The notes: a model not told the origin generated them from the letters alone. A stretch of DNA of 64,000 bases from a virus (IMGVR_UViG_3300010347_000503:1-64000); one strand, 5' to 3'; positions 3,126 to 35,755 are shown, numbered from the stretch's first letter. A program made the numbers and translations.

Positions 3126-3869
3126 CCCCCAGCACCACCACAAAAGAAGAGGAGAAAAGAGGATGGCATACATAGTAAAAATCAATACTGAAGTTGGGCA
3201 TAAGAGTTTGACAATCATAGCAAACAGCAAGGAGGAAGCCGAAACAAAAGCAAAAGAAAATAAAGACTACCGAGGCACGATAGATGTGCGGTTGTGGGAA
3301 CCGGTATATTTTGAATAAACAGGTAACAGGCGGGGTGCGGTTCCCGCCTTTCCTATCGTCTTATGCCCGAACGTCCGTTCGGGCACGAATTATTATTATA
3401 CTACAGGTCGTCGCATTTTGTCAAGAGATTTTTTGTAAATTTTTTTTAAATTTTTTATCCCAAAATCGGCAGCAGGATTAGTCATAACTAACTTAAATTA
3501 GATTAGACTAACCGAGGTTAGTCGCAACTAACCGGCTCAGCTCGAATTTGCGCGAGCACCCCATTTCATTATAACATCAAAACGAAAATTTGTCAATAGG
3601 TTTTTGAAAAATTTTCCTAAAAATATTTTTACTTTTTCTATTGACATTTATTGCCTTTTGTAGTATAATAAAATAAAAACCCTCTTACAGATCCGCAAGA
3701 GGGTCTCTCCTTTATTATACCATGGAAATGATATTTTTGTCAATAGTTTTTTGAAAACTTTTTTTAAGAAAATTTTTGAAAAACTTATTGACTTATTACT
3801 ATAATGTGATATACTTATATCATAACAAGGGGATACAGTAAGCCCCACAGATAAGGAAGAGAGGTATAG

Positions 3870-3974
3870 ATGATGGAAATGAAAGAAAAGGTTTTATGTG
3901 CAATCGGGACAATTTTCGTGTTGGGTCTGCTATTATTATCTAGCACATTAGAATATACACTAATGATACAATAA
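3870..3974 (+). CDS. Small membrane peptide (34 aa)
   Basis: RBS GAGAGG; hydrophobic core VLCAIGTIFVLGLLLL. Confidence 0.5.
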   Translation: MMEMKEKVLCAIGTIFVLGLLLLSSTLEYTLMIQ

Positions 3975-4186
3975 AACTCTTTCCTCTTGTCAATAGACAA
4001 TTTTGCTAAAGATGTTTGAAAAACCTTGTGCATTTTGCCTATTGACTTTTGAAATAATATATAATACCCCTAAAAAAAATTTGAAAATTTGTGCATTTTG
4101 CCTATTGACAGCCCCCAATTTTTGTGATATAATTTGGCGGCGCGCGAACGCCCACCGCGCGCCGCTTGTTTGTTTGTTCGGTTACT

Positions 4187-4232
4187 CGAACAGTTGTTCG
4201 ATCGAAAATGTGTTCGAGCGAACAGCTGTTCA
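4187..4232. promoter_or_regulatory. Three LexA-type boxes at an exact 16-bp period
   Basis: CGAAC-AGTT-GTTCG (4187), CGAAA-ATGT-GTTCG (4203) and CGAAC-AGCT-GTTCA (4219), downstream of the promoter at 4105-4132. Confidence 0.6.
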
Positions 4233-4549
4233 GATCCCGAATTGTATGCGCAACTCAGTTTAGTTGTATGAACACCTTTAGACAACTTGGATCCGGTTGA
4301 AGTTGTCTAGAGTTGTTCATACAACTACTCCAAATTATTTATCGTGGGCGGGCGCTGGCGCCCGAAATATTATATCACAGGGCATCGCAGTTTGTCAAGA
4401 CTAATTTTTGAAAAAATTGCACAAAAATTTTACGCCCGATTTATGAAACTTTTTTGCGAAAGTCTATTGACAACAGGGGGTGAGTATGATAATATATAAT
4501 CAGACAGAGGGGATACGGTAAGCCCCCACAAAAGAGAGAGGTAAAGGAT

Positions 4550-4798
4550 ATGAACGAAGAAATGATGATGGTTATTGTTGACAAGGCAAGAAAGAAAGTA
4601 AATAATTGGCTTGAAACAGCTAAAGAATGTGTAAAAGATTATCACGGTGTTAGATTTTGTATGAATCAGGCTGATGCTATATGGTCATTCGTTACGACTG
4701 ATTGCACTCCTACTTATGAGGCTTATACAGAGTTATCAAAAGAATGGCGAGAAGTATATAAACCTCAGTTTGAAGCCCTTGTGGATGAGGCGGATTAA
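4550..4798 (+). CDS. Hypothetical early protein
   Basis: Promoter, RBS GAGAGG and terminator; from the ORF track. Confidence 0.75.
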   Translation: MNEEMMMVIVDKARKKVNNWLETAKECVKDYHGVRFCMNQADAIWSFVTTDCTPTYEAYTELSKEWREVYKPQFEALVDEAD

Positions 4799-4895
4799 AT
4801 AATCCGCCTCATAAAAAAAATAAAAATAGTTGTTGACAAAATCAAAAAAAATGATATAATAAGATTATAAAGAAAAAGAAAGAGAGGAAAATAAA

Positions 4896-5087
4896 ATGAC
4901 AACAGAAGAAATGATTATGTACGACCAGTTGGTAGATATGGGAATTGCAACAACAGATGAACTCAACTTTGCAAGAAACCTTATGGGCGGCGAGTGGATA
5001 GAAGTTTTAAACGCTGTACTGTTTGTTCGCACCGGATATAGGTCGATGGAACAGATGTTAGAAGCGGAAGATGAAGATTTCGAGTGA
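4896..5087 (+). CDS. Hypothetical acidic early protein
   Basis: Promoter and RBS GAGAGG; from the ORF track. Confidence 0.75.
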   Translation: MTTEEMIMYDQLVDMGIATTDELNFARNLMGGEWIEVLNAVLFVRTGYRSMEQMLEAEDEDFE

Positions 5088-5360
5088 TTGCCCTCCTCTC
5101 TCTAATAGGGATCCCCTGAATTTTAGGGGATCTCCTTTTTTTATGGCGGCACGCGATGGACCGCCGCGTGCCGGGTTGTATGTTTGGATCATATTTCTGA
5201 ATGTTTGTCAAGCCTTTTTTTGTAAAAAAATATACAAAAAAATATCCCGTAATTTGTGCAATTTTTTATATAAAAATATTTGACAACAACCCTAGGATAT
5301 GGTATATTATACTTGTAGCAAGGAAGTAAATCCCAACAGAAAGAAAGAGAGGAAAATGTT

Positions 5361-5561
5361 ATGGTTTATTTTATCGAGTATGCAAAGGTGTCTCCCGCAA
5401 TTTTGGATATGATTATTACAACGGCTTGTCCTAACGCCTATACTATGAGCTATCCGGTGGAAGATGCGGATGATATGTTCGAGTTAGCTGTTTGTTTCTG
5501 GGAAGATGCAACCAACCTTGACTTGTGTAAGGTAGAAAGAACACTGGCACCCTATGTATAA
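5361..5561 (+). CDS. Hypothetical early protein
   Basis: Promoter and RBS GAGAGG; from the ORF track. Confidence 0.7.
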   Translation: MVYFIEYAKVSPAILDMIITTACPNAYTMSYPVEDADDMFELAVCFWEDATNLDLCKVERTLAPYV

Positions 5562-5591
5562 TAGGGTGTTCCATAAGAACAGGAGGAATAG

Positions 5592-5762
5592 ATGATGAGA
5601 GTTATTGAATGGATTGAACAAAAACCACGTGATTTATATGGACGTAATATCCGTATATTAAACTTAACTACTAATAGAGATATGGGCGACTGGACTGATT
5701 ATAAGGATCGCATTGTTTTAAAAGTTAAAGTTACCATAAAATATATTTTCTTATATATTTAA
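5592..5762 (+). CDS. Hypothetical 56-aa protein
   Basis: RBS CAGGAGG; MMRVIEWIEQ... Confidence 0.55.
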   Translation: MMRVIEWIEQKPRDLYGRNIRILNLTTNRDMGDWTDYKDRIVLKVKVTIKYIFLYI

Positions 5763-5824
5763 TATTGACAAATAAAATAAAATATGATATAATGTTTTTA
5801 ACAAAAGAAAAGAGAGGTAACAAA

Positions 5825-6136
5825 ATGGAATATCAAGTAACCCTGTTTTGTAGCACAAAGAAATATCGCCCTATATCTTGCATTGTCAAGAGAAATGATA
5901 AAGTAGATATTCATAATGCTACTGTAAAGCGTCAATTGCTGAATGAGGGGATGAAAAAAATCTGTATTCAGCGTGGTTGGACGGCTCGTGATCTTGCAAC
6001 CTTTGGTTATGCTATGGGAAAAGTGCGGGAATATGACAAAGAAAAACTTGACAAAGAGGCGGAAGAGCGGTATAATAAAATAAAGGAAGAGAAATACGCA
6101 TCGGGCGAGTGGAAACGTCCCAAAAGAAAGGAGTGA
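5825..6136 (+). CDS. Hypothetical protein
   Basis: RBS GAGAGG before ATG 5825 (MEYQVTLFCS). Confidence 0.75.
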   Translation: MEYQVTLFCSTKKYRPISCIVKRNDKVDIHNATVKRQLLNEGMKKICIQRGWTARDLATFGYAMGKVREYDKEKLDKEAEERYNKIKEEKYASGEWKRPKRKE

Positions 6137-6140
6137 TATT

Positions 6141-6326
6141 ATGTTTACTACTTTAGAAATCGTTTTAATTGCTGTATTGGTTTATTTATTAATCGGAATT
6201 GCGATTACAATGCTTGTTGCAAGAGATGGTGTTATGGATACTGCTGATATTGCTTTAACTACCTTTTTATGGGCGAGAATACCTCTTATCTTGATCCGTA
6301 ACAAATTAAAGAAAATTATCGAGTGA
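6141..6326 (+). CDS. Small membrane protein
   Basis: RBS AAGGAG; two hydrophobic segments. Confidence 0.65.
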   Translation: MFTTLEIVLIAVLVYLLIGIAITMLVARDGVMDTADIALTTFLWARIPLILIRNKLKKIIE

Positions 6327-6734
6327 TCGTACTCTCTCTTTCCTTTGGGCGCCCCTAAAATTGGGGCGCCCTTTTCCGGGGCAAAATTTTTTTTGAAAAA
6401 TTTTAAAATAATACTTGACATTTACCCCTAATGTGCGACGGGGCGCGCACGTTCCTTGCGCGCCCCAATTTTCCATTATACCACAGCCGCCACCATTTTG
6501 TCAATAGGAAATTTGCACAATTTTTTAGAATATTTTATCCCAAAATTAGTGCAATATTCCAACTTGAAAAATTAAAAATATTTTGTTATAATTATAAATG
6601 TAAAGAGATAAGAAAAGGGCGGAAAACAAAAAGACCCCGCTAAACAAAAAAAATAAAAAAATCTCTTGACAAATAAAATTAAATATGATAAAATAAAGAT
6701 GTAAACAAAAACAACACACAAAAGAAAGGAATTG

Positions 6735-7094
6735 ATGAAAATGGAAAAGATGACAAATGTAAAGGCACTCTCTTATGTAATCGAGAACTTCGAGAATGAG
6801 GTTCCGGCTGATGTGTTCGAGAAGTTGGTTGCTATCCGTACTTCTTTCGAGAAGAAATCCGCAAGCAAGAAACTGACTGCTAATCAGGAAGAAAACGAGG
6901 GCTTTAAGGCTACTATTATCGAGGTACTCACTAATGCAGACAAGGCGCTGACTGTAACTGAAATTCAGACCGTAAATGCTGAACTCAGCGCACTCTCTAA
7001 TCAGCGTGTATCCGCACTCTTGAGACAGCTGATTGATGCTAACAAGGTCGTTAAGACAGTAGACAAGAAAAAGTCGTTTTTCTCTATCGCATAA
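6735..7094 (+). CDS. Winged-helix DNA-binding protein (paralog of 11727-12080)
   Basis: C-terminal LSNQRVSALLRQL..V.KT..KK..F wHTH-like pattern, nearly identical in motif to the second copy. Confidence 0.7.
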   Translation: MKMEKMTNVKALSYVIENFENEVPADVFEKLVAIRTSFEKKSASKKLTANQEENEGFKATIIEVLTNADKALTVTEIQTVNAELSALSNQRVSALLRQLIDANKVVKTVDKKKSFFSIA

Positions 7095-7156
7095 TAGCAA
7101 CTTGCGGATGGGGGTAGGGTAGTGAAACTACCCCCCAACAAAAAGAGGGTAACAAA

Positions 7157-7483
7157 ATGAACAAAGAAAAGCTAATTCTTGAAATTATGGCGGATGCTGA
7201 AAAAGACGGCGAGCCTGTTACAAGAGAAGAGGCAGAGAAAATGGCGGAAATGGAAATAAAAGCTAACGCCTCCCGCCGATATGAAAAAGCGGAAACCGCA
7301 CGCAAACCCGCAAAAAGAGAAGTCAAGAAAGATCCAGAAAAAATTGAAATAATCAAAAAAATTTGTGATTTTCTCTTGACAAATGGCGAGGAAAGTGCTA
7401 CAATAGTAAATGAACAAAAGGAAATACAGTTTAGAGAGTTTTCAATCACTCTCACCAAACACAGAAAGGGGAAAACAAAATGA
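7157..7483 (+). CDS. Hypothetical protein (distantly resembles 12141-12548)
   Basis: RBS GAGGG; from the ORF track; same position after the wHTH gene. Confidence 0.7.
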   Translation: MNKEKLILEIMADAEKDGEPVTREEAEKMAEMEIKANASRRYEKAETARKPAKREVKKDPEKIEIIKKICDFLLTNGEESATIVNEQKEIQFREFSITLTKHRKGKTK

Positions 7484-7656
7484 TTAAGAGAATGGTAACT
7501 TTTGAGGAATGTCCGAAAACCAAGGCGGAGTTCATCGCCAAGTGGAGCGCAGACCGCGACTTCCGCTATCGTGCAAAGGCAAGCGGTTTCAAGGTTCTGT
7601 TTGGAACCAATGTAGTTTTCCCCACGGGGAAAGTAGCAGGGGAAAAGGTCAAGTAA
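7480..7656 (+). CDS. Hypothetical 58-aa protein
   Basis: ATGA overlap with the upstream stop; MIKRMVTFEECPK... Confidence 0.6.
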   Translation: MIKRMVTFEECPKTKAEFIAKWSADRDFRYRAKASGFKVLFGTNVVFPTGKVAGEKVK

Positions 7657-8080
7657 GACCTCCCCACCTGCGCCCATAGCCTAGTGGTTAGGCACACGAC
7701 TCGACAACTTGACAAGTTTAAAAATTTTTGGTATAATATACATGTAACAAAAAATAAAAGAGGGCGTCGCCTAAAGGTATGGCACCAAACTTTTAATTTG
7801 GTCAATGGGGGTTCAATTCCCCCTCGGGCGCACTCGTCAACATACGTTTCGTTCCCTCTCTTTCTTTAGGCGATGACTTCGGTTATCGCCCATTTTCTTT
7901 TCAGTGGGTCGCGCAGGAACGGCGCGACCCAAATTTACCATTATACCACCTCCCGCACATTTTGTCAAGCAAAAATTAATTAAAAATTATACAAAAATTT
8001 ATCCTAAAATTTATCTATTTTGTCTATTGTATTATTCTGATAATTTGATATAATAATATTATCAAATGAAAGAGAGGTAA

Positions 8081-8353
8081 ATGCAGATGTTAATCTACTC
8101 TAATATTGCAAGTAAGAGAACCTATGTAGAATGGTGGGGCGGTAGTACAAAGCATCCCGATGTCCGCCACTGTTATCAGGATGATGTTGAGAAAGAAAGA
8201 TTTACCCCTAACAAATTTTTAGGTGATGAATACAGTGTATTTCAATGGCTTGTAATGTGTTGTAGTAATTTGAGTTTTGGTACGAACTCTTCACTAAAAG
8301 ATTTATTAGAATTAACAAAAGAATATACAGAACCCTTAAAAAGATGGGGTTGA
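8081..8353 (+). CDS. Hypothetical protein
   Basis: Promoter and RBS GAGAGG. Confidence 0.7.
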   Translation: MQMLIYSNIASKRTYVEWWGGSTKHPDVRHCYQDDVEKERFTPNKFLGDEYSVFQWLVMCCSNLSFGTNSSLKDLLELTKEYTEPLKRWG

Positions 8354-8403
8354 CAAACAACCCCATAGATGGTATAATAAAGAAAAAACAGGAGGAATAA
8401 AAA

Positions 8404-8631
8404 ATGACAATCGTTGGTCCAAGAGTAAAGGTATCTTTTACAAAAGAAGAGTTGGATGCATTCTCTATTGTTGCAGATATTATCAAAGGATTGCGAGTAA
8501 AAGAGGTGGATGGCTTTATTGAAGCGGTAACTGCTTATGATAGCATTTTCTATGATGAGTTTGGTGATAAAACCACTGTATTTGAATTTGAATTTTTAAA
8601 TAATATGGATAAGGAAGAAGAGGAGGAATAA
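8404..8631 (+). CDS. Hypothetical acidic protein
   Basis: Promoter and RBS CAGGAGG. Confidence 0.7.
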   Translation: MTIVGPRVKVSFTKEELDAFSIVADIIKGLRVKEVDGFIEAVTAYDSIFYDEFGDKTTVFEFEFLNNMDKEEEEE

Positions 8632-8742
8632 GGGACTGAACAAATGTTCGGCCCGGGCAAAAAATTTTATAAAAAATTTATTGACAAACAATAGAAAGTG
8701 TAGTATAATGAATACATAAGATAAAGAAAAGAGAGGAAAAAA

Positions 8743-8994
8743 ATGAAAGAATTTTTCAACATTAACGAACCTTATAAGTTTGAAATGAACGACTTGCGGG
8801 CAGTAATTCAGATTATCAATGTTGTACTGATTATGATTTTTGGTCTGTCTGTTTCGTGGTTTGGTCTGGCTCTTGCGGTGTTTGGTCTTATTAAAGATTT
8901 TACCACAGATAGACACATTAACTCGATTGCTATGCACACCGCAAGCGCAACTTTAAACATTTACTTTTTAACACTTTTGTATGGAGGTATGTAA
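8743..8994 (+). CDS. Membrane protein
   Basis: RBS GAGAGG; 2-3 hydrophobic segments. Confidence 0.7.
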   Translation: MKEFFNINEPYKFEMNDLRAVIQIINVVLIMIFGLSVSWFGLALAVFGLIKDFTTDRHINSIAMHTASATLNIYFLTLLYGGM

Positions 8995-8995
8995 A

Positions 8996-9175
8996 ATGAT
9001 TTATAAAAAACTTTACACTTTTAAAATGCCTAGTTTTGAGTATTTTAAAGATGAATTAGAATGGGGCATTGAAACTTTAGATGATTTATTATACATGCTC
9101 GATAAGATGACAGAGGATGAACTTCGTGAATTTGGAGATGTTGAAATAGATACAAAATTAATTATTGACAAATAA
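8996..9175 (+). CDS. Hypothetical acidic protein
   Basis: RBS GGAGG at 8983-8987; MIYKKLYTFK... Confidence 0.65.
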   Translation: MIYKKLYTFKMPSFEYFKDELEWGIETLDDLLYMLDKMTEDELREFGDVEIDTKLIIDK

Positions 9176-9231
9176 ATAAAAATATGATATAATAATAATG
9201 TAAACAAACAAAAGAAAGCGAGGTAAGAAAA

Positions 9232-9360
9232 ATGACAGCATTAACTTATGAATGTGTAACCAAGGATGGTAAAAAAGTAGAGGTAAAGACCTACGCTGAA
9301 GCGTTGAAGATTAAGGCGGAGGGCGGTACTTTCAAGGCGAAGTACACGAAAATCAAATAA
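9232..9360 (+). CDS. Hypothetical 42-aa basic protein
   Basis: Promoter and RBS GAGG; MTALTYECVTKDGKKVEVKTYAEA... Confidence 0.6.
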   Translation: MTALTYECVTKDGKKVEVKTYAEALKIKAEGGTFKAKYTKIK

Positions 9361-9594
9361 GTCGAGCGGGCGGGAGAAATCCCTGCCCTTTTCATCAGCG
9401 CGCGATGGGTCGCCGCGCGCTGAAATTCACCATTATACCATACCCCAAGGTTTTTGTCAAGCGTTTTTTAGAAAAAAATTATACAATTTTTTATCCCGAA
9501 ATTTGTGCAAAAAGTTAGCGAAAAATTATTGACTTATGTATTTAAAATGATATAATAATAGTATAGTAAATAAAAGAAAGAGAGGTAAATAAGA

Positions 9595-10062
9595 ATGAAC
9601 AAAACTTTAGTATTTGACATGGATGGCACAATCGCTAATCTGTATGGGGTAGAAAACTGGCTCGATGATTTAAGAGCGGAAAATCCTCGCCCTTATGTCG
9701 ACGCAGAACCGATGTATAATATGGTCGTTCTGAATGGTCTTTTGAAAATGTTTAAAGAAATGGGCTGGCGTATTGTGGTGACAACGTGGTTGTCAAAGGG
9801 TAGCACTCCCGCATATGATGCTCTTGTCCGTGAAGCAAAAATTGAATGGCTTACAAGATATGATTTCCCCTACGATGAAATCCACCTTGTAAAGTATGGC
9901 ACAACGAAAGCAAATTGTACACGGCGTATAGGCGGTTTTCAGGTACTTGTTGATGATAATGAGCAGGTACGCAAGGGATGGACACTCGGTGATACAATTA
10001 ACGCAAACGAAAATATCATTAAGGCTCTTTTGGAACTGTTAGAAACTGAGGTGGTGGGGTAA
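9595..10062 (+). CDS. HAD-superfamily phosphatase (5'(3')-deoxyribonucleotidase-like)
   Basis: N-terminal LVFDMDGTIANLY and C-terminal LVDD motif. Confidence 0.75.
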   Translation: MNKTLVFDMDGTIANLYGVENWLDDLRAENPRPYVDAEPMYNMVVLNGLLKMFKEMGWRIVVTTWLSKGSTPAYDALVREAKIEWLTRYDFPYDEIHLVKYGTTKANCTRRIGGFQVLVDDNEQVRKGWTLGDTINANENIIKALLELLETEVVG

Positions 10063-10101
10063 AACCCCCCACCCCGCAATAAAAAGGAGGTATATGCAAA
10101 A

Positions 10102-10362
10102 ATGGCAAAAGTGTTAAAATTAATTAAACATCAAGAAATTGAAATTCCGATAGAGAGAATTGAAAAAGATTGGAAAGAATATAATGGTGAGTGCCTAGCC
10201 TATGGTGACGAAGATTCTATGATAGAAACTCTTGAGGATTATATTGAGAGTGTAGAAGAGGATTATCTCGCAGACTTTGACCAGGTTATATATGATTATG
10301 CAGAAATTGCAAAAGGGCTAAAGGATAAAAGAGAATGGGAAATTGTAGAAGAGGGGGAATAA
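10102..10362 (+). CDS. Hypothetical acidic protein
   Basis: RBS AAGGAGG. Confidence 0.7.
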   Translation: MAKVLKLIKHQEIEIPIERIEKDWKEYNGECLAYGDEDSMIETLEDYIESVEEDYLADFDQVIYDYAEIAKGLKDKREWEIVEEGE

Positions 10363-10680
10363 TCCCCCTCTTTCTATGAGTGGACCGCGCGCGAACGCGC
10401 CCGGTCCAAAATTTCATTATAACACAGGTTCTAAGGTTTTGTCAAGTGAAAATTGCAAATTTTTTAAAAAAATATTTTTCCTAAAATAATTGACAAATAA
10501 ATAAAAATATATTATAATGATTATAGTAACAAGATAAAGGGGCTTGTAAAACTTGAAACGAAACCCCGACAAGTGTGTAAGGAAGTCAATGTGCGCATAG
10601 GGTTGGAATAATCTTGAAAAAGGGCATTGACAATCTCCTTTAACTATGTTACAATAGTAATAGAAAGAGAGGTAAGAACT

Positions 10681-11187
10681 ATGAAAGGGATGAAGAAACT
10701 TAACAAGGCAATTAAAGCGGAAGTTGCGAAGTTTGGAATTGAAAAAATCTCCATGGGTGACTGGGAATGGCGGATGGATAACCACTCTATTGAATACACC
10801 TTACTTGAAAATCGTATGGAAGATATTTTCTTTCTGAAATTTGTAAAAGAGCGTTTTGGATATAAACCACTTAACTGTTTCATGCTTTCTTTATTCCATG
10901 AAATCGGGCATAACATGACGTATGAGGATTTAATGGAAAGTGATGTCATTTATGATTTTTGTCAGGCGGAAAAGAACCGCATCGAAAAAGAGATGGCATC
11001 CATTGAAACAAAAAAGCAAGCAAAAAAACTTGAATATCAGTATTTCAACCTCCCCGATGAGATTGTGGCAACTGCTTGGGCGGTAGACTACATGGAAACC
11101 CATGAAGAGGAAATCATGGGAATGTGGGAGAGAATTAAAAAAGAAATTGTAAAATTTTATGAAAAAAACCTTGACACGGAAGAATAA
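10681..11187 (+). CDS. Hypothetical protein with a possible HExxH zinc motif
   Basis: LFHEIGH motif; RBS GAGAGG before ATG 10681. Confidence 0.6.
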   Translation: MKGMKKLNKAIKAEVAKFGIEKISMGDWEWRMDNHSIEYTLLENRMEDIFFLKFVKERFGYKPLNCFMLSLFHEIGHNMTYEDLMESDVIYDFCQAEKNRIEKEMASIETKKQAKKLEYQYFNLPDEIVATAWAVDYMETHEEEIMGMWERIKKEIVKFYEKNLDTEE

Positions 11188-11726
11188 ATGTAGTATAATG
11201 ACAATGTAAAATAACAAAGAGGGCTAAAAAGCCCTCTTTTTATGAGTGGCGCGTTTTGGAACAAAACGCGCCAAATTCACCATTATACCATACCCTTGAG
11301 ATTTTGTCAAGCGAAAAATCAAAAAAAATTGTACAAAGATCTATCCCATAATTAGTGCATCTTTCCGATATTGATTTTTTAAAAATTTTTTGTTATAATA
11401 AATACATAAGATAAAGAAAGAAATAAAAAGTGGAAGAGGAAAGTTTCAAGCAACTTCAATCGGTCTCACCGCCACTTCAAAAAATAGGAAAAACCAAAAA
11501 AAATGCTTGACAAGCACAAAAGAATATGATATAATAAATACATAAGATAAAAGGAAGCGACTTAACAGGGCGGGAAACCCTAAATAGTGCGCACGGGGTA
11601 AACAAGACAGTCAATTCCGAGGTTTGAAAACCTACTAAAAAAAATTCAAAAAAGTGCTTGACAATTAAAACTGAATATGGTACAATAATAATGTAAACAA
11701 AAACAATCCAACCAAGAGAGGAATTG

Positions 11727-12080
11727 ATGAAAATGGAAAAGATGACAAATGTAAAGGCACTGGCGTTCGCAATCGAGAATGGTGACTTTCCGCAGGAAGT
11801 AACCGACAAGTTGGTAGCGATTAAGACTTCCTTTGAAAAGAAGTCGGAAAACAAAAAGCCTACCGCAAATCAGGCGGCAAATGAGGACTACAAGGCAACT
11901 ATCCTCAATGTACTTGATGGAGTAGGCGCAGTAACCGTCACCGAGTTACAGGGTAAGGATGAAACCCTTGGCGCATTGTCTAATCAGAGAGTGAGCGCAC
12001 TTCTTCGTCAGTTGGTTGAGGCTGGTAAGGTCGTCAAGACGATGAACAAGAAGAAAGCACTTTTCGCACTTGCGGAATAA
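11727..12080 (+). CDS. Winged-helix DNA-binding protein (paralog of 6735-7094)
   Basis: Shares MEKMTNVKAL, TANQ..NE..KATI and LSNQRVSALLRQL with the first copy. Confidence 0.7.
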   Translation: MKMEKMTNVKALAFAIENGDFPQEVTDKLVAIKTSFEKKSENKKPTANQAANEDYKATILNVLDGVGAVTVTELQGKDETLGALSNQRVSALLRQLVEAGKVVKTMNKKKALFALAE

Positions 12081-12140
12081 ATCATATAGGCAGTGGGGGC
12101 AAGGCACATAATCCCTTGCCCCACTTGAAAGGGGGAACAA

Positions 12141-12548
12141 ATGCGATACACATTAGCAAATGGCAAGACAATTTCAATTCCCGATGATGAAATAAAAGCA
12201 AATATGAAACTAGGTATCACCGAAAATGAAGCGGTTGAAATGTGGCTTGAGGATAATGAGTATGAAGTCAACGAGGAACAAACCGCATTAGAGGAAAAAG
12301 CCAAGGGTATGAAAATTGACCACGGAGCAGGCAACGCAGAACGTAAAAAGTCCTCTAAACCTAGAACCGTACACACTTCAGACGAGAAAAAAGAGCTATT
12401 TGAAACCATTTTAGCTAATATTGACCGCGCGGAGGGCGTTGAACGTGAAAATATCGAAATTTTAAAGGAAAATAAGCTGATTCAGGTGAAAATCGGGGCA
12501 AAAACTTTCAAAATTGACCTAATTGAGTGCAGACCGCCTAAAAAATAG
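12141..12548 (+). CDS. Hypothetical protein
   Basis: RBS GGGGG; from the ORF track. Confidence 0.7.
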   Translation: MRYTLANGKTISIPDDEIKANMKLGITENEAVEMWLEDNEYEVNEEQTALEEKAKGMKIDHGAGNAERKKSSKPRTVHTSDEKKELFETILANIDRAEGVERENIEILKENKLIQVKIGAKTFKIDLIECRPPKK

Positions 12549-12786
12549 GCGGTTTTTGTTATGAGTGGCGCATTTTCGAACGAAAATGCGCCAAATTTCC
12601 ATTATAACACAGGTTTTGAGGTTTTGTCAAGTGATTTTTTCAAAAAAAATGCACAAATTTTGATCCCGAAATTTGTGCAACATTCACCGCAAAAATCGCT
12701 TGCATTTCTATTCTATTGTGTTATAATGAATACATAAGGTAACAACAAACAACACCAACAAAAAGAAAGAGAGGTTTTAAACCAAA

Positions 12787-13746
12787 ATGAAAAAAAAGTA
12801 TTATCTTGTACTTGACACCGAAACCGCAACACTGCCGTTCGCAAATGATTTATGCAAGTCTACAAAGGACAAGCAGAAAATCGCAATCGCAAAACCGCTT
12901 GTATATGACATCGGTTGGGTAATTATTGACCGTCTGGGTAATATCGTCAAGAAAGTTAATTATCTGGTTCAGGAAACTTTCTTTGTACCAAACGTATTCA
13001 ACACCGCATATTATAAGGACAAGCGCCCTATTTATATGAACTTGCTTGCAAATGGTTTGATAACCGCAAAATGTTGGAACGATATTATGAATGAACTTGA
13101 ATACGACTTGTCGGGATGTGACCTTGTAACCGCTTATAACGCTTGTTTCGACTTCAAGAAAGCAATTCCGTTTACCGAACGCTATATATATCATTTGTAT
13201 CGGAGTGATTATAATGAGTGGGAAGCAGGACAGCGCAAGCACTGTAATCGCCTTGTGAATGGGGCAAAAGATGATAGCGATGGAAACCCCGAATATTTAA
13301 CCCCTGTATTCAAGTTAAGATGTAAGGAATATCCGATGTGCGACTTGTGGGGGCTGGCTTGTGAACGTCTTATCAATATAGACAAATACCGCAATTATTG
13401 TTTAGAGTATGGACTTTTAACAGCAAGCGCAATCTATTTCAAAACAAGTGCGGAAACAAGTTTCCAGTATCTTATGCAAAATTACGACTTTATCGAAGAC
13501 CACACCGCTTTAAACGATGCAATTATTGAAAGTCAGATTTTAGCAAAAGGTCTGAAAAAAGGTGCGGTAAATCCGATGGTGACTGCTTTTCCGTTCCGTG
13601 AACTCGGCACAACTTACGATTATGTGCTGAACAAAAAGCCGAAATATAGAGAAAATCTGCGGAGTTGCCTTGAGGAATATATGGAAACACTGAACGAGGG
13701 AACGGCATATTATACACGGATGGAAAGCATTTTAGCACAGCTTTAA
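12787..13746 (+). CDS. DEDDh 3'-5' exonuclease
   Basis: LDTET (ExoI), AYNACFD (ExoII) and HTALND (ExoIII). Confidence 0.8.
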   Translation: MKKKYYLVLDTETATLPFANDLCKSTKDKQKIAIAKPLVYDIGWVIIDRLGNIVKKVNYLVQETFFVPNVFNTAYYKDKRPIYMNLLANGLITAKCWNDIMNELEYDLSGCDLVTAYNACFDFKKAIPFTERYIYHLYRSDYNEWEAGQRKHCNRLVNGAKDDSDGNPEYLTPVFKLRCKEYPMCDLWGLACERLINIDKYRNYCLEYGLLTASAIYFKTSAETSFQYLMQNYDFIEDHTALNDAIIESQILAKGLKKGAVNPMVTAFPFRELGTTYDYVLNKKPKYRENLRSCLEEYMETLNEGTAYYTRMESILAQL

Positions 13747-13983
13747 AAAGCGGGGAACCCCTAGGGGCTCCCTTTTCTAATGCCTTGAGCGGTGCGTGCA
13801 GGAACGGCACGCACCGAATTCACAATTATATCATATTTTCAAGGTTTTGTCAAGTAAAAATTCAAAAAAAAATGCACAAAATTTTATCCCATAATTTGTA
13901 CTTGACGATATAAAAAAATTATATTATAATGATTATAACAAAACAAATAATAATTATAGAAAATGAAAGAGAGGAAAAGAAAA

Positions 13984-14172
13984 ATGTTTGAAAATTTAAA
14001 AAAGGAATTAGATATTAGTAAAACTATAATAGCTGTAACAGATATATTTACTGATTTTTATGCAAGTACAGAAAGAGAGGGTATTCAATTAAAGACACAA
14101 AAAGGAAATTATATTGAATTATATAATGATGGTACTTGGACATATTATGAGGGAGAAAATGATGAGAATTGA
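13984..14172 (+). CDS. Hypothetical protein
   Basis: RBS GAGAGG; from the ORF track. Confidence 0.6.
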   Translation: MFENLKKELDISKTIIAVTDIFTDFYASTEREGIQLKTQKGNYIELYNDGTWTYYEGENDEN

Positions 14173-14265
14173 TGGAGAAAATAAAAGAAATTTTCAAAAA
14201 GATCTTGACAAAGCGTTGAATCAGTGATATAATAAATATATCAAAACAAGAGAGGAGATAATCAA

Positions 14266-14493
14266 ATGAGAAAATTTCGTCCCGAAAGTTGGCAGTCACA
14301 AGCAAGAGAAAGAGGTGATATGCTTTATCGCAGACTTGCCGATGGTATTTATAGCAATGAAAATCAGATAATTAAATATTTTGCTCTCGGTTATGAGTTT
14401 GATATGGATAGACAGAGAAGAAAATATGTAGAGCAGAGAGCCGCAAAAAGAGTAAACAGATTAATAAATAAATATGATATAAGGGAGGACTAA
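14266..14493 (+). CDS. Hypothetical basic protein
   Basis: RBS GAGGAG; has a promoter. Confidence 0.65.
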   Translation: MRKFRPESWQSQARERGDMLYRRLADGIYSNENQIIKYFALGYEFDMDRQRRKYVEQRAAKRVNRLINKYDIRED

Positions 14494-14496
14494 AAA

Positions 14497-14688
14497 ATGA
14501 CATTTGAAAAATTAGTAGATGAAGTACAGGGTAGCATAGAATACGCGTTAGGACATTTAATCTTTTTTGTAAATATGGCATATCGAGATGACCTTTCAAA
14601 AGAAGAGATTTTCAAAGCAATCAGACGAGGTCTTGAGGCTGTAGTCAGTGGATATGAAAGTGAGTATGATGAAGATGACGAAGAATGA
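14497..14688 (+). CDS. Hypothetical acidic protein
   Basis: RBS GGAGG. Confidence 0.65.
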   Translation: MTFEKLVDEVQGSIEYALGHLIFFVNMAYRDDLSKEEIFKAIRRGLEAVVSGYESEYDEDDEE

Positions 14689-15447
14689 AATTCAGTCACT
14701 CATCGGAGCTTTTGCAAAAGAATATGGTGTGGGGGATTGACATCCCCCATTTTTTATTATCCTAGGGTTAGTTACAACTAACTTGCCCGGCGCGCGCACG
14801 AACGTGACGCGCCGATTCCAGCCCCGCGATCCCCATAGGCATTTTTCATATGGATGTTTGAACTGTTTGTTTCATTTCCTCCGTCCCGAAATTCAATCCC
14901 ATATGCCGCACCAACTTGACTTTTTAAAAAATTTTTGATATAATATTAAAAAAACCCTAAAAAAATCCGGTTCCCGCTCCCCTTAAGTGAATTTGCTTCT
15001 TTCGTTACGAAACGGTAAAATATTCGTGCGATGGGTTTTAATTACAATAGAAAGGACTACAGCTAACGCTGTGGTTATATTTCTAGTAAAGCCGCTCGAC
15101 TTGATTTTTTATAAAATTTATGATATAATTAATATATAAAAGAAGCGGGGTGTGGTGCCAATACGGGAGCGCAAACACTTGAGCTGCTTATATATATAAG
15201 CGCTTGACTTTTTTAAAAATTTATGATATAATATTAAAAAAACCCTATTTTTTTTCGCCACCCTAATTTTGGGCTGTAGCCTTCACCGCCATAAAAATGA
15301 TAAAATATTCGCGGCACTAGTTTTTATTGCAGTACAGCTCACAAGAGCACCCGTAAAATCCAAAAAACTCAACGAACCTCTCTCTTGACATTTTTGAAAA
15401 TTTATGATATAATATAATTATAAACAATAGAAAGGAATAATAAAGAG

Positions 15448-31116: not shown

Positions 31117-31127
31117 GTTAATATAAT

Positions 31128-31218
31128 AGGGGTGTAGCATAATGGTTAATGCAGCTGTCTCTAAAACAGCCAGGTGCGTCCAAACCACCGGATGTGGGTT
31201 TAAATCCTACCACCCCTG
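31128..31218 (+). tRNA. Amber suppressor tRNA (CTA), long variable arm (Ser/Tyr-like)
   Basis: GCTGT-CTCTAAA-ACAGC gives anticodon CTA; discriminator G. Confidence 0.8.
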
Positions 31219-31220
31219 TA

Positions 31221-35397: not shown

Positions 35398-35751
35398 GGG
35401 GTCGAAACAGTTTCGACGGGGTCTTGAAAATTATTAGTTCGCACGAAATGATATGCGCGTTATGCAATCAAACTTAAAATAAACGCAAAAGTTATTTCTT
35501 TTAATTCTTATAGACCGGTAGCTATGGCTGCCTAATATAATGAATACCTCAAGTAATTCTATCGCTTCTGGTCAATGCTTGAGTGTTTAAGTAAAAGAAG
35601 CAAGTCGGTTCTTTGTAAACGCAGTTAGGAACAAAGTGGTGGGTCTAGGCAAAAACCTGTTAAAGTGAGAGAACACTTAGAAAACGCTATTGCGTAAAAA
35701 ACTAATAATTAGTATGGATTTCGGACGCGGGGGCAGAGCCCGCCGGCTCCA
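35398..35751 (+). ncRNA. ssrA: tmRNA; tag reading frame 35485-35535 AKVISFNSYRPVAMAA*
   Basis: GGGGTCG...TTCGAC 5' end, G3.U70 acceptor with CGGCTCCA, ATAAAC-GCA resume context, and a tag ending in AA. Confidence 0.9.
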
Positions 35752-35755
35752 CTTT

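Follow-up and report, generated by a model that had tools for sequence, protein, structure and literature searches.

A covarying GC hairpin behind gene-less antisense promoters recurs at early-block boundaries of large gut phages as a putative boundary cassette

The DNA analysed here is a stretch of 64,000 nt of a viral genome (IMGVR_UViG_3300010347_000503:1-64000), hereafter called the window. In the 90.9-kb record, which comes from an uncultured gut phage, perfect TTGACA-17/18-TATAAT promoter sites number 34, compared with 0 for the reversed pattern, and 29 of the 34 lie in the first 15.4 kb. Thirteen perfect promoters are on the minus strand, all of them below 13.9 kb, and in the first 15 kb a stable hairpin follows every one. 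The nine minus-strand promoters listed in the initial annotation all match the consensus at 12 of 12 positions. The hairpins it had placed behind them were found as well, since the 60 nt past each of these promoters fold with a minimum free energy (MFE) of -17 to -26 kcal/mol, compared with mostly 0 to -10 past the gene-driving plus-strand promoters. The pattern of promoter plus hairpin is real and beyond chance.

Seven of the minus-strand promoters form a uniform family, in which the initial transcribed sequence GGTRAATT is followed by a GC palindrome of 27-29 nt. The hairpins of these core units begin 7-8 nt past the -10, close to the distance of about 10 nt given earlier. The core units are listed below with the E values of their matches to the covariance model R1, where available, followed by two sites at which the hairpin stands without a complete promoter and by two linked genes.

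6440..6504, minus strand, core unit: promoter 6475-6504, 27-nt GC hairpin 6440-6466, 8 nt past the -10; R1 E 2.4e-7; upstream terminator at about 6349-6375, without a minus-strand U-tract.
7905..7968, minus strand, core unit: promoter 7940-7968, 27-nt hairpin 7905-7931; R1 E 7e-12; terminator 7869-7890, 14 nt from the unit, plus-strand only.
9395..9460, minus strand, core unit: promoter 9432-9460, 29-nt hairpin 9395-9423; R1 E 5e-6; terminator 9368-9388 directly upstream.
10381..10445, minus strand, core unit: promoter 10416-10445, 28-nt hairpin 10381-10408; R1 E 1.5e-7; terminator beside it at 10353-10369.
11247..11310, minus strand, core unit: promoter 11282-11310, 27-nt hairpin 11247-11273; R1 E 1e-10; predicted RNA of ~65-70 nt, reaching as far as the bidirectional terminator 11216-11239, fold z-score -9.1.
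12566..12630, minus strand, core unit: promoter 12601-12630, 28-nt hairpin 12566-12593; predicted RNA with fold z-score -8.1; terminator 12531-12555, plus-strand only; conserved upstream dyad with GGGAT at 12650-12679.
13790..13853, minus strand, core unit: promoter 13825-13853, 27-nt hairpin 13790-13816; R1 E 4.5e-10; predicted RNA of ~70 nt, reaching as far as the bidirectional terminator 13753-13772.
5147..5215, minus strand, decayed unit: 27-nt hairpin 5147-5173, -35 TTGACA kept, -10 lost (TCCAAA); upstream terminator 5108-5134; hairpin-only R1 match, E 0.002.
14788..14814, no strand assigned: promoter-less 27-nt GC hairpin of the core-unit kind on the right-hand edge of the early block, past the terminator 14729-14750.
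6735-7094: winged-helix paralogue gene, the first gene past the unit ending at 6504.
11727..12080, plus strand: winged-helix early protein gene, the first gene past the unit ending at 11310.

The units divide the region between 3.3 and 14.8 kb of the window into blocks of 1-3 genes. In gene order, the cassette consists of a canonical terminator, the 27-nt GC palindrome, and a backward, gene-less, full-consensus sigma-A promoter with its upstream element. All elements of the backward promoters are optimal: A/T-rich upstream DNA, the -35, a spacer of 17-18 bp, TG, the -10, and GG past the -10.

Other phages were searched with a pattern that comprised only the promoter and the initial transcribed sequence, the hairpin being left out. 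A GC hairpin was present at the identical offset in 80 of the 80 pattern-found sites on other phage contigs. Across the family, the promoter-to-hairpin offsets are bimodal (2-4 and 7-8 nt), and the hairpin is 27 nt long in 62 of 109 distinct units, although many members are close relatives and such counts therefore overstate the independent cases. The upstream element with GGGAT/dyad is conserved in the backward units, and a convergent 'near' promoter partner is present in the relatives.

The stems diverge between units and covary. Paired cells make up 92.7%, compared with 70.5% in shuffles, and the slid controls gave 27-43% pairing. Two-sided changes were seen in 79 cells (24 in shuffles) and one-sided changes in 3. 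The covariation score of 0.551, compared with 0.158 after shuffling, was reached by 0 of 500 shuffles, and the earlier claim of compensatory variation and selection on structure thereby gains formal support. The cassette recurs and covaries in other phages, and the repeated antisense-strand unit of promoter and hairpin described in the initial annotation is upheld. In four complete genomes (164-198 kb), the R1 matches lie on one strand in a single zone of 10-14 kb, with 7-9 copies per genome. Meanwhile, the loop motif GAAC/GTTC that had been pointed out is specific to the window phage and not family-wide. For the deposited relative phAss-1, the classification gives genetic code 15, and the host is predicted to belong to the Clostridia. 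The recurrence of the cassette in many large, related phages makes a function very probable, the likeliest being control at block boundaries or antisense control.

Neither gathering thresholds nor E<=1 yielded an Rfam match at the units, and a literature search found no published description of a backward hairpin-capped cassette. The sole Rfam match in the window search was tRNA-like (7764-7832).

The hairpin-capped type accounts for 90 of the 161 antisense-facing promoters and for 6 of the 546 sense promoters, and no RBS-bearing ORF was found downstream of the backward promoters. A gene-sense terminator lies within 170 nt in 93 of the 109 units, at 8-17 or 45-53 nt. Of the 109 units, 61 have a terminator-like site in the promoter sense no more than 130 nt away, compared with 69 of 545 controls. 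The upstream terminator had been described as bidirectional, which holds for about 3 of the 8 window units (56% of the family), the remaining window units being without a minus-strand U-tract. The proposed short RNA of about 60-80 nt is likewise a fair prediction for those roughly 3 of 8 units only. The palindrome itself does not qualify as a typical intrinsic (rho-independent) terminator: the GC-rich stem is present but the U-tract is weak, with a mean of 2.9 or 2.2 U, depending on direction, in the 8 nt past the stem, and even a loose test (5 U in 8 nt) was passed by 43 of 109 units in the gene sense and 23 of 109 in the promoter sense. It makes a poor intrinsic terminator in either direction, and its own insulating contribution may therefore be limited.

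What the sequence establishes is the layout of the cassette, its fixed distances, its orientation, its covariation, and its recurrence in a clade of large gut phages. That the promoters are active, where they start, and where the RNAs end are predictions. For the RNAs predicted in the window, folding gives two hairpins, at z-scores between -4 and -9. The sequence of the RNA body differs in each unit, the common part being AAUU plus a variable stem, and RNAs that share so little do not support a trans-acting role for the decoy sRNAs proposed earlier.

The reading that we favour, tentatively and at somewhat less than even probability, is that of a natural boundary cassette, terminator plus antisense promoter, that seals and tunes the early blocks. 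Host RNA polymerase would start 1-3 nt ahead of the palindrome and make a non-coding RNA whose 5' end is capped by a very stable hairpin, and this RNA would run back into the preceding terminator. Only where that terminator is bidirectional would transcription stop, at 60-130 nt; elsewhere an antisense extension into the upstream block is predicted. Convergent transcription would meet read-through polymerases head-on at positions fixed by the stem-loops, and the collisions would seal each early block from spill-over into the next. The backward promoter would also damp the expression of the block that it faces, and the antisense RNA may be a by-product or a second control layer.

When a terminator is combined with a constitutive antisense promoter, the upstream gene is repressed in proportion to the promoter strength (PMC4731013). 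The synthetic part of Brophy and Voigt (2016) shares with the cassette the order of elements, a terminator followed by a strong promoter aimed back at the gene, as well as the proposed action, polymerase collisions with some antisense RNA effect. That part was engineered and tested in E. coli, whereas the phage cassette is natural and present in 7-9 copies per genome; its antisense start bears a hairpin fixed at 27 nt, its upstream element is conserved, and its terminator is bidirectional in about half of the cases instead of unidirectional. Head-on collisions block read-through, with a nascent stem-loop setting the collision site (Wang, Watters, Ju, and Liu, bioRxiv 10.1101/2022.10.23.513370). 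Their system resembles the cassette in its converging polymerases, the meeting point set by stem-loops, and the lack of read-through over the boundary. In the bacterial collisions, however, both partners are real genes, whereas one partner in the phage cassette would be a promoter merely supplying the opposing polymerase. A strong antisense promoter would lower the phage's own early-gene expression, the benefit of which is an assumption, and the boundary model does not explain the upstream GGGAT/dyad, the fixed length of 27 nt, or the winged-helix link.

If the promoters are active, the cassette would be a family-wide natural case of promoters whose sole task is to fire at a terminator, a design otherwise limited so far to constructed synthetic circuits and to inference from convergent gene pairs. 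The cassette would also show how large virulent gut Firmicutes phages partition and dose dozens of small early genes of the host-takeover or anti-defence type. At ~130 bp the cassette is compact and might serve as an insulator part for Gram-positive hosts. The cassette is also a marker by which the early region of uncultured phage genomes can be recognised, since R1 picks out a single zone of 10-14 kb in each genome.

The OOP RNA of phage lambda is a short antisense RNA to the 3' end of cII. The units could encode cis-antisense small RNAs of this kind, with the RNA itself as the effector: it would pair with the early mRNA of the upstream block at its 3' end, trigger RNase III cleavage or otherwise alter stability, and make early expression self-limiting. 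We consider this unlikely, though a serious candidate. Lambda OOP (pO-oop-tO) and P22 sar are likewise short non-coding RNAs with a constitutive promoter facing the 3' end of the upstream gene and a defined terminator. Each unit carries a strong promoter directed against the upstream gene and, 1-3 nt from the predicted start, a 5' hairpin that would stabilise the RNA. In 56% of cases a defined 3' end is predicted, and the RNA body is unlike that of every other unit, as expected of cis-antisense RNAs. However, an RNA stopped at a bidirectional terminator overlaps the terminator hairpin of the mRNA and no coding sequence, two folded GC hairpins pair slowly, and the hairpin outlives the promoter at 5147, at 14788, and at 132-142 kb in the relative G001. 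Moreover, OOP is a single locus that overlaps the coding end of cII and acts with RNase III, whereas the phage cassette is present in many copies per genome, its overlap is often limited to the terminator, and its conserved feature is the 5' cap hairpin.

Promoter-early stem-loop (PeSL) cassettes are known from the T4-type phages RB49/phi1 (PMC2839356). By analogy, the ~130-nt cassette could be a linker through which homologous recombination lets ORFan blocks be swapped, lost, or gained, its transcription signals making the blocks self-contained. This is decidedly unlikely as the main explanation, although it is compatible with the boundary cassette. Both cassettes are repeated composites in which a strong host-type early promoter is joined to A/T-rich DNA upstream and to a stem-loop of GC pairs; in the cassette described here the promoter matches the consensus at 12/12 positions and has TG and A/T tracts. 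Both lie between ORFan genes in a plastic early region, and indels between close relatives stop in intergenic DNA that carries promoters. ORFan blocks are flanked by the cassette, and the relatives L001-L005, 90-98% identical, differ by indels of 0.2-1.7 kb. In L003, a consensus promoter is no more than 30 nt away from about 6 of 11 breakpoints, including one inside the upstream element of a backward unit, and 147 unit pairs share only the downstream flank, compared with 24 that share only the upstream one. Against this, most of the observed breakpoints, a small sample, are at ordinary forward promoters, and homology within the cassette is lowest in the stems. Homology would suffice for a linker, which leaves the backward orientation, the fixed offsets, and the diverged yet paired stems unexplained. 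In PeSL cassettes, the stem-loop acts on upstream transcription as a terminator or attenuator; in the cassette described here, the stem is very stable, the U-tract is weak (mean 2.9 U in 8 nt), and a canonical terminator already stands ahead of it in 93 of 109 units. A PeSL promoter is oriented with the genes and runs into the Shine-Dalgarno sequence and start codon of the gene that follows, and its stem-loop varies in position, the hosts being enterobacteria, whereas the cassette, with Gram-positive-type hosts, has a gene-less backward promoter and a hairpin of fixed length, fixed at 7-8 nt past the -10. A PeSL with a gene-ward promoter was rejected on the antisense-to-sense count (90 and 6) and the lack of a downstream RBS-bearing ORF.

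It is very improbable that the units act as a polymerase sink, in which gene-less super-promoters absorb host sigma-A holoenzyme, or as bulk structural decoys whose 5'-triphosphate hairpins saturate a host RNase or sensor. The optimal promoter elements, the short gene-less transcription units, and the leftmost 4.4 kb of the record, with 16 near-consensus promoters and few ORFs, would suit such a role. However, with 7-9 units per genome among about 30 equally perfect gene promoters in the region that holds the units, the added titration is small, which counts against the RNAP sponge of the initial annotation. The fixed terminator-side placement, the single orientation, and the paired stem are all needless for a sink, and no shared motif for a binding partner was found in the loops and stems of the family.

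A DNA-level role is highly improbable. The GC palindrome would go non-B (cruciform or a short Z-like tract) under supercoiling from the flanking promoters and be read by a phage protein, with the linked winged-helix family as the candidate. The stems are near-perfect Watson-Crick on both strands (G-U against A-C, 6 to 5), with one-sided changes rare, but the canonical terminators of these loci are equally symmetric (19 to 21), so that the G-U/A-C test has no discriminating power. Alternating purine-pyrimidine runs are longer, at 6.26, than in palindrome-preserving shuffles, at 4.80 (sd 0.17), but they are short (median 6). A winged-helix gene lies within 900 nt past 54 of 126 units (43%), and Z-alpha domains are among the best structural neighbours of the protein model (pLDDT 90), with Z 11.3 and an rmsd of 1.1 A over 62 residues; these matches are, however, tied within 1 Z with ordinary wHTH repressors, and the nearest solved chains by sequence are Hop2 and BlaI-type winged helices. 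The Z-alpha signature consists of Asn/Tyr in the recognition helix and Pro-Pro-x-Trp in the wing. A Z-alpha identity was rejected, as alignment A2 has no conserved Tyr, including in the recognition helix, or Pro-Pro, and the wing keeps only one aromatic residue, F113. The full version, a structure-specific DNA signal extruded or flipped by supercoiling and read by the multi-copy winged-helix early protein, we regard as a long shot; if true, it would place a protein switch on every early-block boundary. A cruciform or ssDNA signal for replication, as once suggested, finds no support in units that occur only at early-block ends, always by a terminator and always on one strand.

Elements of other kinds lie at the left end of the region:

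3364..3424, minus strand: LexA-box unit of core-like layout; its hairpin, at 3364-3385, represents a perfect LexA (Cheo) box of the Gram-positive type, CGAAC-N4-GTTCG.
3540..3596, minus strand: another class of gene-less backward promoter, with initial sequence GAAATGGGG and a weaker hairpin.
3641..3743, no single strand: convergent pair of perfect promoters, 3641-3669 (plus) and 3714-3743 (minus), firing into the single hairpin 3679-3704.
4105..4165, plus strand: near-type unit; promoter 4105-4133, hairpin 4137-4165, 3 nt past the -10.
4349..4398, minus strand: near-type unit; promoter 4369-4398, 16-nt hairpin 4 nt past the -10.

The perfect Cheo box at 3368-3381 overlaps the promoter start region of its unit and is kept in the relatives L001-L005. 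LexA-like boxes with at most one mismatch number 8 in the window, compared with 0.65 in shuffles. This unit is probably a LexA-operated backward promoter; of the unit listed near 3395, the promoter and the hairpin stand, the hairpin being this LexA box. The plus-strand element at 4105-4165 had been taken for the same unit, but its geometry differs, the hairpin lying 3-4 nt past the -10, as it does at 4369-4398. It converges with the unit ending at 4398 over a gene-free stretch that bears three LexA-like boxes. Gene-less backward promoters of the 3540..3596 class are also found at 472-500 and 702-730, and the class is present in L001-L006.

The perfect pattern TTGACA-N16–18-TATAAT was found at 34 sites of the source record, while the reversed pattern was found at none. 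Positions up to 15.4 kb account for 29 of the 34 sites; the 13 on the minus strand all lie below 13.9 kb. The 60 nt past each minus-strand promoter listed in the initial annotation folded with −17 to −26 kcal/mol; the same fold for the plus-strand promoters that drive genes gave mostly 0 to −10 kcal/mol. These results confirmed that consensus promoters on the minus strand lead into stable hairpins.

Seven of the units, named by the end coordinates of their backward promoters, are uniform (6504, 7968, 9460, 10445, 11310, 12630, and 13853). In this layout, a TG-extended TATAAT is followed by a GGTRAATT-like sequence and then by a 27–29-nt GC palindrome located 7–8 nt past the −10 element. The stems of the seven are all different. 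With the usual spacing of ~7 nt between the −10 element and the RNA start, the predicted 5′ end would fall 1–3 nt ahead of the stem. The promoter and hairpin described initially stand as parts of the repeated unit, and the conserved stretch proved to be longer: it reaches ~90 nt upstream of the −35 element, with phased A/T tracts, and includes a GGGAT motif at a constant distance of 37 nt from where the −35 element starts, within an imperfect TGCACAAATTT...AAATTTGTGCA dyad. The units split the window from 3.3 to 14.8 kb into blocks of 1–3 genes. The hairpin at 5147–5173 is kept though its −10 element is lost, and the one at 14788–14814 is present without a promoter. The conserved ATGAGTGG before the hairpin was ruled out as coding (ORF 12561–12737 and similar) because there is no RBS, the start directly follows a terminator, and the changes in the stem compensate one another instead of preserving codons.

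For the search of other phages, we used a pattern made of the promoter and the initial transcribed sequence only, with no hairpin specified. It matched 80 sites in 66 stretches of IMG/VR contigs, mostly 60–200 kb long, and a GC hairpin, with differing stems, was present at the same offset in 80 of 80 sites. Over all the fetched loci, 239 of 1182 near-consensus promoters had such a hairpin, and it should be noted that these family counts are not all independent events, as many members are close relatives. The promoter–hairpin offsets were bimodal, 7–8 nt (far) or 2–4 nt (near). A far promoter only accompanied 71 of the 171 distinct hairpins, 68 lay between converging far and near promoters, and 32 had a near promoter only. 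A palindrome length of 27 nt is shared by 62 of the 109 distinct far units.

The pairing was examined in a gap-free alignment of 46 units over the eight outer pairs. It reached 92.7%, compared with 70.5% in shuffles and 27–43% in slid controls. Changes on both sides of a pair occupied 79 cells versus 24 in shuffles, and the covariation score was reached by none of 500 shuffles. Thus, the proposed selection on structure through compensatory variation is borne out. As had been suggested, a covariance model (R1) was also built and used in a phage search; the window's record and four complete relatives of 164–198 kb each gave 7–9 matches, which in any one genome share a strand and all fall in one zone of 10–14 kb. 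Neither loop nor stem sequence is conserved across the family, and the GAAC/GTTC loop noted earlier, though present in this phage, is not a family-wide trait, GAAC being peculiar to this phage.

In the complete 164-kb relative G001 (locus 131500–143500), AAAATTC with its 27-nt hairpin persists at 132–142 kb, facing against the genes; ahead of it stands a conserved AAATTGTGCAAC motif in place of a sigma-A consensus, perhaps a different type of promoter or a site for a regulator. A motif similar to AAATTGTGCAAC is seen on the plus strand of the window at 12668–12690.

Three of the units listed initially, one with a LexA box and two of the near type, differ from the uniform seven. They are given here together with further elements of the window.

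3364–3385 (box 3368–3381), perfect Cheo (LexA) box in place of the core GC palindrome, kept in relatives
4105–4165 and 4349–4398, near-type units converging on a gene-free stretch
3641–3743, convergent promoter pair sharing one hairpin
472–500, 702–730, and 3568–3596, second class of backward promoters, gene-less, with the initial sequence GAAATGGGG
192–248, 3368–3381, 4187–4232, and 8637–8650, Cheo boxes

Allowing up to one mismatch to CGAAC-N4-GTTCG, the window has eight LexA (Cheo) boxes of the Gram-positive type, five of them perfect, versus 0.65 expected from shuffles. Three LexA-like boxes lie between the convergent promoters 4105 and 4398, in the gene-free stretch. The GAAATGGGG class, with its conserved initial sequence and a GCTCG...CGAGC hairpin, is also present in the relatives' loci L001–L006.

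The far promoters are oriented against the genes, as they made up 90 of 161 antisense-facing promoters and 6 of 546 sense ones. A canonical gene-sense terminator was found within 170 nt of the palindrome in 93 of 109 units, its stem 8–17 nt from the palindrome, or 45–53 nt where a near promoter intervenes. According to the U-tract counts, the palindrome is a poor intrinsic terminator on both strands; these counts and the canonical terminator ahead exclude it as the primary terminator.

The same layout, a terminator and then a strong backward promoter, is that of a synthetic part which represses the upstream gene in proportion to how strong the antisense promoter is (PMC4731013). Single-molecule work on convergent genes showed that the stop of read-through requires head-on collisions and that the nascent stem-loop fixes the collision site (bioRxiv 10.1101/2022.10.23.513370). 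From the shared layout and the collision work, our tentative interpretation of the unit is a boundary cassette, by which the early blocks would be sealed and dosed, and we rate this reading at slightly under an even chance. The 5′ hairpin would shield the antisense RNA against 5′-end-dependent decay and would possibly help to position the polymerase collisions. Such protection of RNA by a 5′ hairpin is a known effect in Bacillus. No published description of the cassette was found in literature searches on phage promoter-hairpins, antisense promoters, and related topics.

A terminator-like site within 130 nt in the promoter direction was present in 61 of 109 units, compared with 69 of 545 control positions. 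The prediction of ~60–80-nt RNAs holds in the window for units 11310 and 13853, which have a clear terminator of this kind (predicted RNAs of ~65–70 nt), and more loosely for unit 3424. It fails for the others: the remaining upstream terminators of the window have no minus-strand U-tract, so the predicted RNAs would extend antisense into the preceding genes. An OOP-like antisense RNA, as well as a PeSL-like recombination linker, is compatible with the boundary cassette and does not exclude it. A non-B DNA element and a polymerase sink or decoy RNA were considered as further rival readings. Each of the eight RNAs predicted in the window folds into two hairpins (z-scores −4 to −9), and neither an Rfam family match nor a plausible ORF was found in them. 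G-U and A-C counts were 6 versus 5 in the hairpins and 19 versus 21 in the canonical terminators of the same loci; as the latter are likewise symmetric, the comparison is uninformative on the selected RNA strand. A CRISPR-repeat-like or otherwise sequence-specific decoy RNA was rejected since stems and loops vary inside one genome.

A number of the backward units are followed by a gene of a ~120-residue protein family with a conserved KKPTAxQxANE motif, which is multi-copy in relatives and has two paralogues in the window.

6735–7094, first family paralogue
11727–12080, second family paralogue

The family is encoded in 54 of 73 search-set loci, all but one of which had been fetched by the DNA pattern or a protein match. 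A member lies within 900 nt after 54 of 126 far units, and it is the first gene following 43% of backward units. The protein model has a C-terminal winged helix (pLDDT 90), and its top structural neighbours include Z-alpha domains, tied with ordinary repressors. A Z-alpha identity was rejected, as the Z-alpha signature is not kept. This protein is a candidate regulator of the cassette and might act, for example, through the GGGAT/dyad element.

The window spans bases 1–64000 of the source record, a linear IMG/VR virus record of 90.9 kb with a completeness of 58% (CheckV); the GC content is 32.7%. The genes of the first 15 kb are small plus-strand ORFans preceded by strong Shine-Dalgarno sites, and a type II topoisomerase, NAD ligase, PhoH, and a DnaB-like helicase are encoded to the right of this early region. 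About 20 tRNA genes, among them one whose anticodon is CTA, and a tmRNA are also present.

31127–31219, tRNA of 93 nt and of the amber suppressor type, anticodon CTA
35398–35754, phage tmRNA

Reading TAG through gave no clear gene lengthening within the window, the late genes being outside it. No near-identical cultured phage was found by megablast, and the best identity of the topoisomerase across the phage collection was at most 36%. The deposited metagenomic genome phAss-1 (OQ749652), reached via a short DNA match, bears the same convergent units. It is assigned to the "code 15 clade" with a predicted host in Clostridia, and the words "promoter", "hairpin", and "terminator" occur nowhere in its paper.

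ORFs are very scarce in the leftmost 4.4 kb of the record, where 16 near-consensus promoters lie. CTAAC-N4-GTTAG dyads are found at the left end of the record (268–1400), inside the early block (3485–3535), and at its right end (14765–14785). The early region also holds a tRNA-like element at 7764–7832 (Rfam tRNA, 42.8 bits), uncalled by ARAGORN, which has its own perfect promoter (7709–7737) and terminator (7869–7890). The plus-strand perfect promoter 11171–11199 fires directly into the terminator 11216–11239, so an RNA of only ~35 nt is predicted. Two similar ~110-nt promoter-to-promoter leaders, at 10490–10640 and 11507–11670, precede genes 10681 and 11727; they could be either small RNAs or structured 5′ leaders that recur.
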